DNA of 64,000 nt. Origin: Escherichia coli (lineage in GTDB: Bacteria; Pseudomonadota; Gammaproteobacteria; Enterobacterales; Enterobacteriaceae). The translations under genes and the position numbers were made by a program. The notes beneath the pieces are model-generated. The model saw only the letters and a list, made by a program, of their open reading frames with translations. It had not been told where the DNA came from and made no database searches. The DNA lies in NCBI RefSeq assembly GCF_016026235.1, contig NZ_CP065613.1, one strand, 5' to 3'. Below are positions 57,061 through 57,300 of the stretch, one piece after another (position 1 is the stretch's first letter; each line of letters begins with the position of its first letter).

Positions 57061-57300
57061 GTAACCATGCCGGATGCGGCGTGAACGCCTTATCCGGCCT
57101 ACATGTCGCACGAACCAGGTAGGCCCGATAAGCGTAGCGTATCGGGCAATTTGGCGTTTGGCATCAGTTAGTAACCGCGCCGGATGCGGCGTGATGAATG
57201 CCTTATCGGGCCTAGTGTCGCACGAACCAGGTAGGCCCGATAAGCGCAGCGCATCGGGCAATCTGGCGTTTGCTATCAGTTCTGATTCCCTCATCAAGAA
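57061..57300. repeat. Two tandem ~115-bp REP-containing repeats between convergent ascB and hycI
   Basis: gtaaccatgccggatgcggcgtgaacgccttatccggcctac...cgcacgaaccaggtaggcccgataagcg... repeated twice. Confidence 0.8.

Follow-up and report, generated by a model that had tools for sequence, protein, structure and literature searches.

The ascB-hycI locus

The window, that is, the whole 64,000-nt stretch of DNA that was analysed, originates from Escherichia coli. Its 3-kb locus around the feature described here is 99.8%, 99.6% and 98.6% identical to the loci of strains FDAARGOS_943, EC2641 and GF3-3, respectively. The feature is flanked by two genes, ascB (55636-57060, plus strand; stop codon TAA at 57058-57060) and hycI (57330-57800, minus strand), which encode 6-phospho-beta-glucosidase and the hydrogenase 3 maturation protease, respectively. 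The gene hycI is the final gene of the hyc (formate hydrogenlyase) operon. Both coding sequences are present in the open reading frame list, and their identities were transferred by annotation, for ascB from the PGAP annotation of near-identical loci (99.7-99.8%) and of K-12 and for hycI from the matching and K-12 records. The annotation transfer bears out the convergent arrangement that had been read from the letters alone: ascB and hycI face each other across a gap of 269 bp, most of which is occupied by a repeat array. In the K-12 annotation, ascF and ascB are labelled 'cryptic'.

Structure of the repeat array

A single array with a period of 112, 2.0 copies, 87% matches and a score of 341 was located at 57056-57281 by Tandem Repeats Finder. 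Direct repeats in register, spaced by 110-113 nt, were found by a repeat search of the region, and a blastn comparison of unit 1 with the whole window recovered unit 2 at 88.5% over 104 nt. Global alignment of the two units gave a score of 75, compared with -12.1 +/- 5.0 (maximum 4) in 1000 shuffles. The repeat therefore lies far beyond chance, about 17 SD above the shuffled sequences. The sequence-only reading, which had described two tandem REP-containing repeats at the ascB/hycI junction, is thus confirmed as to the head-to-tail copies, and the repeat withstands realignment. The coordinates (57061-57300) and unit length (about 115 bp) given there are slightly off, as the array occupies 57056-57281 and its units measure 112 and 114 nt. 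EC2641 and GF3-3 have exactly the 269-bp gap sequence of the window, and the gap of FDAARGOS_943 differs from it by one 5-nt loop deletion. Because the identical gap occurs in two independent complete genomes and a third carries it with the 5-nt deletion, an assembly artefact is excluded and the array is a genuine repeat.

Unit 1 (57056-57167, 112 nt) consists of a head (AGTAAGTAACCAT), a y REP, an S linker, a z1-like REP and a tail (AATTTGGCGTTTGGCATCAG), in this order. The head overlaps the ascB stop codon. Unit 2 (57168-57281, 114 nt) has the same order of parts and begins with the head TTAGTAACCGC (heads are 11-13 nt long). The four palindromes described below justify the term REP-containing.

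REP-a (57068-57102, plus strand) belongs to the y type, is 35 nt long and stands in iREP orientation, with CTAC at its 3' end (57099-57102). It is identical at 34 of 35 positions to the published 35-nt REP TGCCGGATGCGGCGTAAACGCCTTATCCGGCCTAC and at 30 of 32 positions to the y REP that was crystallised with TnpAREP; the 35-nt, short and long REP reference sequences were taken from PMC11208160. Its predicted hairpin has a free energy of -21.3 kcal/mol, and the stem begins at 57069, 8 nt past the ascB stop codon, which ends at 57060. REP-a is followed by a head-to-head short ('S'-like) linker of 16 nt, ATGTCGCACGAACCAG (57103-57118), which was read from the sequence; the linker between the y and z1-like REPs is 15-16 nt long within the units. 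REP-b (57119-57147, plus strand) is a 29-nt short (z1-like) REP with GTAG at its 5' end (57119-57122), and it carries ATCGGGCCTAC on the minus strand (57119-57129). Both REP-b and its counterpart in unit 2, REP-b', show ungapped identity at 26 of 30 positions to the published short REP GCCTGATGCGCTACGCTTATCAGGCCTACG (30 nt). The fit of REP-b to the 35- and 37-nt REP types is clearly worse and gapped, with 26-27 of 37 aligned columns against the long reference. The predicted REP-b hairpin has a free energy of -15.4 kcal/mol. The tail-to-tail linker and the unit junction (AATTTGGCGTTTGGCATCAG followed by TTAGTAACCG) extend over 57148-57177 and form an array-specific junction.

The second unit contains REP-a' (57178-57215, plus strand) and REP-b' (57231-57259, plus strand). 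REP-a' is a degenerate y-type REP in which 31 of 38 aligned columns are identical to the 35-nt y reference. Its defects are a 3-nt insertion in the loop, a mismatch in the stem and the replacement of CTAC by CTAG at 57212-57215, and the hairpins predicted for the REP-a' region are weaker (-18.0 and -12.1 kcal/mol). REP-b' is again a 29-nt short (z1-like) REP with GTAG at 57231-57234 and ATCGGGCCTAC on the minus strand (57231-57241), and it sits 70 nt from the hycI stop codon. The 3' arm of REP-a' and the 5' arm of REP-b' are complementary at 13 of 13 positions. Folding predictions accordingly give a single long hairpin for unit 2 but two separate REP hairpins for unit 1.

Across the array the predicted hairpins range from -12 to -21 kcal/mol and have an internal loop in the stem, and the 301-nt region folds better than shuffled sequences on both strands (z = -5.0 and -3.5). 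The conserved GTAG or CTAC stands at the foot of the hairpin in three of the four REPs, the exception being REP-a', and the REP orientations alternate along the array (CTAC-type, GTAG-type, CTAC-type, GTAG-type). REP motifs are abundant in the window (17 and 15 matches, against fewer than one expected), and a 551-nt query found a median of at least 38 matching places per E. coli genome.

Classification and related elements

REPs of E. coli are distinguished by type, and lengths of 35, 29 and 37 nt have been given for the y, z1 and z2 types, respectively (Corneloup et al., PMC8266576). The four palindromes have the properties of E. coli REPs, namely an imperfect palindrome of about 30-37 nt, a match to a REP type, an extragenic position and a high genomic copy number. 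The array has the organization of a BIME, since REPs alternate with linkers and the pair is repeated twice at a period of 112. As outlined in PMC3333891, BIME-1 elements consist of y and z1 with a long L linker, often contain an IHF site and occur in single copy, BIME-2 elements consist of y and z2 with a short linker and occur in tandem copies, and atypical BIMEs combine components of BIME-1 with those of BIME-2 and are also multi-copy (Bachellier et al. scheme via Ton-Hoang et al. 2012). The combination of y and z1-like REPs agrees with BIME-1, but the linker is only 15-16 nt long, there are two copies, and no IHF consensus (WATCAANNNNTTR) was found in or near the array. The short linker and the tandem copies agree with BIME-2, but the partner REP is of the 29-nt short type and not a 37-nt z2. 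As BIME-1 and BIME-2 each fail on a defining feature, the atypical class fits: the array shares the y and z1-type REPs of the atypical BIMEs (a BIME-1-like feature) and their short linker and tandem copies (BIME-2-like features), and its copy number varies among strains. The sub-type was assigned from REP type, linker length and copy number.

A four-unit y-S-z1 array of the same design is present at another locus in strain Nissle 1917, and its linker and tail align with those of the ascB-hycI array. From this comparison, the segment from REP-a through the tail is a module of the family, and only the head of 11-13 nt is locus-specific.

The window contains another tandem BIME array (7350-7701, period 90, 3.9 copies) composed of a 37-nt long REP and a y REP, which looks like a BIME-2. 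Both arrays are tandem BIMEs of one broad class, but their sub-types differ. The ascB-hycI array shares with BIME-2 arrays, such as REP325 at yjdM-yjdN and the array at 7350-7701, the tandem REP/iREP pairs, the short linkers, the location in 3' UTRs and a proposed dual role as terminator and mRNA stabiliser. In BIME-2, however, y is paired with a 37-nt z2, whereas the ascB-hycI array pairs y with a 29-nt short REP. Its unit is also longer (112 vs about 90 nt), and there are only two copies.

The array also resembles the REPINs described by Bertels and Rainey, with which it shares an inverted REP doublet with a short spacer, and its second unit is predicted to form one long hairpin. A cognate RAYT/TnpAREP system has been described for E. 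coli. Unlike in REPINs, unit 1 forms two separate hairpins in the predicted fold, and the paired REPs differ in type (y and z1-like) instead of being one sequence present twice.

Strain distribution and origin of the second unit

The ascB-hycI gap of K-12 MG1655 measures 158 bp and contains one unit. This K-12 element is known as REP197 (2842424-2842502) and is recorded as convergent, ascB|hycI, in a supplementary table of a preprint (10.64898/2026.03.23.713779). REP197 and the array of the window have in common the locus, the flanking genes, the order of parts (y REP, short linker, z1-like REP, tail), the distance of about 8-9 nt from the ascB stop codon and the C-rich region downstream. They differ in the number of units (one with a 158-bp gap vs two with a 269-bp gap) and in the second REP, which has GAAG in K-12 and GTAG in REP-b of the window. 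The tail and right flank of K-12 belong to a different haplotype (AATTTAGCATTTGGCATCAG|AGCTGGTTCACCCC).

A 95-nt query spanning the two-unit junction gave a one-piece match in 3 of 5,426 complete E. coli genomes when searched by megablast and sensitive blastn. Additional 'full-coverage' matches in the sensitive blastn search were considered as diverged two-unit junctions and rejected, as they were made up of two permuted pieces of one unit. The three two-unit genomes are also the best matches for the surrounding 3 kb (98.6-99.8%), and the next best match (97.7%) has one unit. Cross-strain comparison thus agrees with the repeat structure, in that K-12 has a single unit and the two-unit state recurs in independent complete genomes. 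On these alignments, the two-unit allele is a rare variant of the REP197 element on a diverged haplotype.

The head of unit 2 copies the bases that directly follow the ascB stop codon (TAAGTAACC to TTAGTAACC), which indicates that the second unit arose by local tandem duplication and was not imported. Import from another BIME locus was rejected on the grounds that paralogous arrays are about 80-86% similar and lack that head. Loss of a higBA island leaving one unit on each side was likewise rejected, since in alleles that carry higBA no second REP unit is present towards hycI.

The closest single-unit alleles (MLI023K1 and 23AR1101) match a fusion of unit 1 (left half) with unit 2 (right half), and all divergence of the two-unit array from them falls within the inner 112 nt or so. 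A simple recent duplication does not explain this confinement. The pattern would fit an old duplication in which the gene-proximal REPs were under constraint; it would also be compatible with an origin of the single-unit alleles through recombination between the units, or with later templated changes in the inner copies. The extra copy may have been produced by slipped-strand or unequal recombination, or by cleavage and strand transfer by TnpAREP (RAYT). A TnpAREP amplification model for tandem BIMEs and a strain-variable tandem copy number at given loci have been published (PMC3333891). The units differ by about 12%, and microhomology at the junction amounts to at most 3-5 nt. CT/AG dinucleotides (CT being the cleavage requirement of TnpAREP) are too common near the unit boundaries to be informative.

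Allelic variation at the junction

The junction is variable in several further ways. REP-a is absent from two alleles as a 35-nt indel. The linker ATGTCGCACGAACCAG is inverted in three other alleles and deleted in another one, and two more alleles have 5-nt loop deletions. In three of the compared strains, the space between the tail and hycI holds a higBA toxin-antitoxin island with flanking TCAGT sequences. Two further strains retain a degraded higBA remnant, and a sixth has the end of an antitoxin (higA-type) gene beyond IS621. The TCAGT breakpoint is common to the unit duplication and the higBA island. One strain carries IS621 in REP-b, with the CT core of ATCGGGCCTAC as the insertion site. 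Strain variation in BIME copy number and linkers (PMC3333891) and the use of REPs as IS621 targets (PMC11208160) are both documented.

A more far-reaching proposal is that the allelic series and the two-unit allele are a natural record of enzyme-driven BIME remodelling and not of random slippage. According to this proposal, TnpAREP amplified the unit, templated (quasi-palindrome) correction underlies the divergence of the inner 112 nt and is turning two REP hairpins into one REPIN-like hairpin, and copy number tunes the insulation between asc and hyc in a lineage-specific manner. We regard this combination as improbable. The series cited for it comprises the presence or absence of REP-a, the inversion or deletion of the linker, the GTAG kept intact in the duplicated lineage where K-12 has GAAG, the shared TCAGT breakpoint and the IS621 insertion.

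Proposed role in termination, mRNA stability and translation

The feature is very likely a non-coding BIME made of two tandem units, each containing a y REP, a 15-16-nt linker, an inverted 29-nt z1-like REP and a short conserved tail; it is the two-copy allele of REP197 and would act through hairpins in 3' UTRs. All functional steps given below are extrapolated from other REPs or from K-12.

Transcription from either side would give the ascFB and hyc mRNAs, which converge here, stable REP hairpins in their 3' UTRs. Such hairpins are expected to block 3'->5' exonucleases and to help stop read-through. A scan of 56800-57600 revealed no intrinsic terminator on either strand, and no T run follows any of the REP hairpins. 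Promoter-like sites are likewise absent from the gap, both within and next to the array. A C-rich, G-poor stretch directly past the array at 57284-57394 (plus strand, ascB-sense), which runs antisense into the 3' end of hycI, is a candidate Rho-loading (rut) region. It contains 41 C and 15 G in 111 nt, and its C/G ratio reaches 3.4 in 78-nt windows. The equivalent region of K-12 (2842527-2842637) is an in vitro Rho-binding peak located 23-25 nt from REP197 (preprint 10.64898/2026.03.23.713779). The C-rich composition together with Rho binding to the K-12 equivalent in vitro suggests that termination on the ascB strand is probably Rho-dependent in this region. Transcription of ascFB probably ends via Rho downstream of the array, and the 3' ends would then be trimmed back to the protective REP hairpins. 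On the opposite strand, the hyc transcript would reach REP-b' 70 nt past the hycI stop codon.

REPs have been described as Rho-dependent terminators and mRNA stabilisers, and convergent gene pairs with REPs are more highly expressed (10.64898/2026.03.23.713779). The same preprint reported that REP effects are context-dependent and that REP325 fragments with two to four hairpins are insufficient for detectable Rho dependence. REP-a' has lost CTAC and is predicted to form a weaker hairpin, and this degeneracy counts against the explanation given here.

Translation of ascB may also be affected. Liang et al. 2015 (as summarised in PMC12306157) reported that REPs located at most 15 nt from a stop codon cause terminating ribosomes to stall, with reduced translation of the gene upstream. 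The REP-a stem falls within this distance, 8 nt from the ascB stop codon, and judging from the spacing REP-a could lower AscB translation through ribosome stalling. Effects on the ascB side may rarely matter, given the 'cryptic' label of ascF and ascB in K-12.

The duplication leaves both gene-proximal distances unchanged, and for this reason the effect of the second copy is probably small. It adds two internal hairpins, and on the model outlined here its contribution is probably small or neutral.

Alternative explanations

The array could instead be a selfish or neutral REPIN-like passenger, the second copy being a neutral product of RAYT/TnpAREP or of slippage that drifted in one lineage. 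We consider this possible, though on the unlikely side. It would account for the extreme allelic variation at the junction (loss of REP-a, inversion or deletion of the linker, loop deletions and GAAG in K-12), for the rarity of the two-unit allele and for the single long REPIN-like hairpin predicted for unit 2, and it can draw on the published TnpAREP amplification model (PMC3333891). However, a REP pair is kept next to ascB in most of the alleles sampled. In addition, only the inner halves of the array have diverged from the closest single-unit alleles, the outer halves being identical to them; constraint on the gene-proximal REPs would be consistent with this pattern. REPs between convergent genes also correlate with higher expression of both genes (10.64898/2026.03.23.713779). 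The passenger explanation is compatible with a BIME that forms 3' UTR hairpins and does not exclude it.

A role at the DNA level, in which the BIME is bound or cleaved by DNA gyrase (or bound by HU or Pol I), positive supercoils between the convergent transcription units are relieved there and two BIME units make a stronger site than one, appears doubtful. The position of the array at a convergent junction would suit such a role, and the reviews relayed in PMC3333891 include binding of gyrase, IHF and Pol I and topological insulation among the roles of BIMEs. Gyrase cleavage, however, has been described for BIME-2 (y and z2) (PMC8266576), and the ascB-hycI array has the short z1-like REP instead. 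The lack of an IHF consensus also weighs against this role, as does the finding that the model array REP325 has no role in chromosome compaction (10.64898/2026.03.23.713779).

It is very improbable that the array encodes a dedicated sRNA of the kind of naRNA4, a REP325-derived RNA that binds HU. A search for Rfam membership at a permissive threshold returned only sub-threshold matches to naRNA4 (RF02564), each covering a single REP hairpin. One such match lies at 57055-57099 on the minus strand (40.6 bits, E = 2e-5) and reflects the y-REP hairpin sequence shared with naRNA4, but its score is below the gathering threshold of 59.5, and its 45 nt, out of a 77-position model, correspond to only one hairpin. 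The array also lacks a promoter-like site, and the nucleoid role proposed for naRNA4 was not supported in the preprint (10.64898/2026.03.23.713779).

Two open reading frames of 83 aa run through the repeat, one on the minus strand (57052-57303) and one on the plus strand (57074-57325), the latter with its ATG within the REP-a stem. Both are in the open reading frame list at the positions given by the sequence-only reading, which rightly called them spurious. Read from the same ATG, the minus-strand frame is 5 aa long in K-12 and 26-30 aa long in other single-unit alleles; it reaches 83 aa in the window and 126 aa in the two-unit strain that carries the 5-nt deletion. The plus-strand frame, likewise read from its same ATG, ranges from 10 to 83 aa among alleles. 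Neither has a Pfam match at E<=1, and PGAP annotates nothing in the gap of the three two-unit genomes. Both frames are spurious by-products of the repeat. That one or both encode real small proteins is scarcely credible: they are open over 83 codons, the minus-strand ATG has AGGA 5 nt upstream and is located in the hyc 3' UTR, and PGAP calls a comparable 'hypothetical protein' over the paralogous BIME array of Nissle 1917, but the frames are not conserved among alleles, which effectively refutes this reading, and, besides lacking Pfam matches and PGAP annotation, they overlap almost entirely on opposite strands, are made of palindromic repeat sequence with a unit length (about 112 nt) that is not divisible by three, and are both reframed by a 5-nt indel in one two-unit genome.

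Implications

The kind of element and its position are already known from REP197, and the array of the window is an ordinary BIME in a rare two-copy form. An annotation should describe the region as a REP/BIME repeat (REP197 orthologue, two copies) and should not record the 83-aa frames as genes. The junction illustrates BIME plasticity in a compact natural form, since 0.5, 1 and 2 units, an inverted linker, an IS621 insertion and a toxin-antitoxin island all occur at one site. It could serve as a test bed for the relation between REP copy number and termination or mRNA stability between convergent operons and for the tandem amplification of BIMEs.

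Allelic variation of the ascB-hycI BIME

The 16-nt linker between the inverted REPs is inverted in three of the ascB-hycI alleles from the E. coli genomes compared (L008, L011 and L014), reading ATAGTTCGTGCGACAT versus ATGTCGCACGAACCAG (window equivalent 57103-57118). In these alleles the loop enclosed by the inverted repeats has flipped. REP-a, the y-type REP of unit 1, is precisely missing in two alleles (L009 and L015) through a 35-nt indel that leaves the residue GTAAC(C)TAC (window equivalent 57066-57100). Single REPs, besides whole units, have therefore been gained or lost at the ascB-hycI site.

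IS621 and a higBA island at the BIME

REP-b, the short z1-like REP, is interrupted in E. coli FDAARGOS_401 by IS621 (L014 1702-3001), which lies at the CT core of ATCGGGCCTAC. IS621 is a bridge-RNA recombinase of the IS110 family. Two perfect ATCGGGCCTAC sites, both on the minus strand, were identified in the 64-kb window (57119-57129 and 57231-57241), and no other perfect site is present in it. According to published work, the target-binding loop of IS621 specifies exactly this 11-mer.

A higBA toxin-antitoxin island separates the BIME tail from hycI in three of the E. coli genomes compared (L010, L013 and L015), and a degraded remnant of the island is found in two further genomes (L011 and L012). 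The island carries a 5-nt direct repeat, TCAGT, on both edges, and a TCAGT edge coincides with the BIME unit end (window equivalent ~57167/57281).

Other repeats in the window and a paralogous array

A second tandem BIME array, of the BIME-2-like type, is located at 7350-7701 (period 90, 3.9 copies). In each of its units a 6-nt linker joins a 37-nt long REP to a 35-nt y REP, which resembles the make-up of BIME-2. This array is probably the structure with which the sequence-only reading had classed the ascB-hycI repeats. The window also contains a canonical short (z1-type) REP (43105-43134), a cluster of three REPs (49612-49791), and single REPs or small REP clusters at 21747-21809, 41696-41708 and 52125-52137. 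A 276-bp tandem repeat of 2.8 copies (32330-33094, and on to 33189) consists of three tRNA-Arg(ACG) genes plus spacers. A tRNA-Ser(GCT) gene comes next, and all of these genes lie on the minus strand.

A paralogous y-S-z1 BIME array of four units was identified in E. coli Nissle 1917 (L017 1108-1490), where it adjoins a carbamate kinase family gene. PGAP calls a 96-aa "hypothetical protein" across this array, and the call is probably spurious and REP-derived.

Divergence of the ascB-hyc locus

Across the ascB-hyc locus (55700-58700), this strain and the three other two-unit genomes (FDAARGOS_943, EC2641 and GF3-3) are at least 2.3% diverged from all other complete E. coli genomes. This divergence suggests that the two-unit strains belong to a rare lineage or that the segment was imported.
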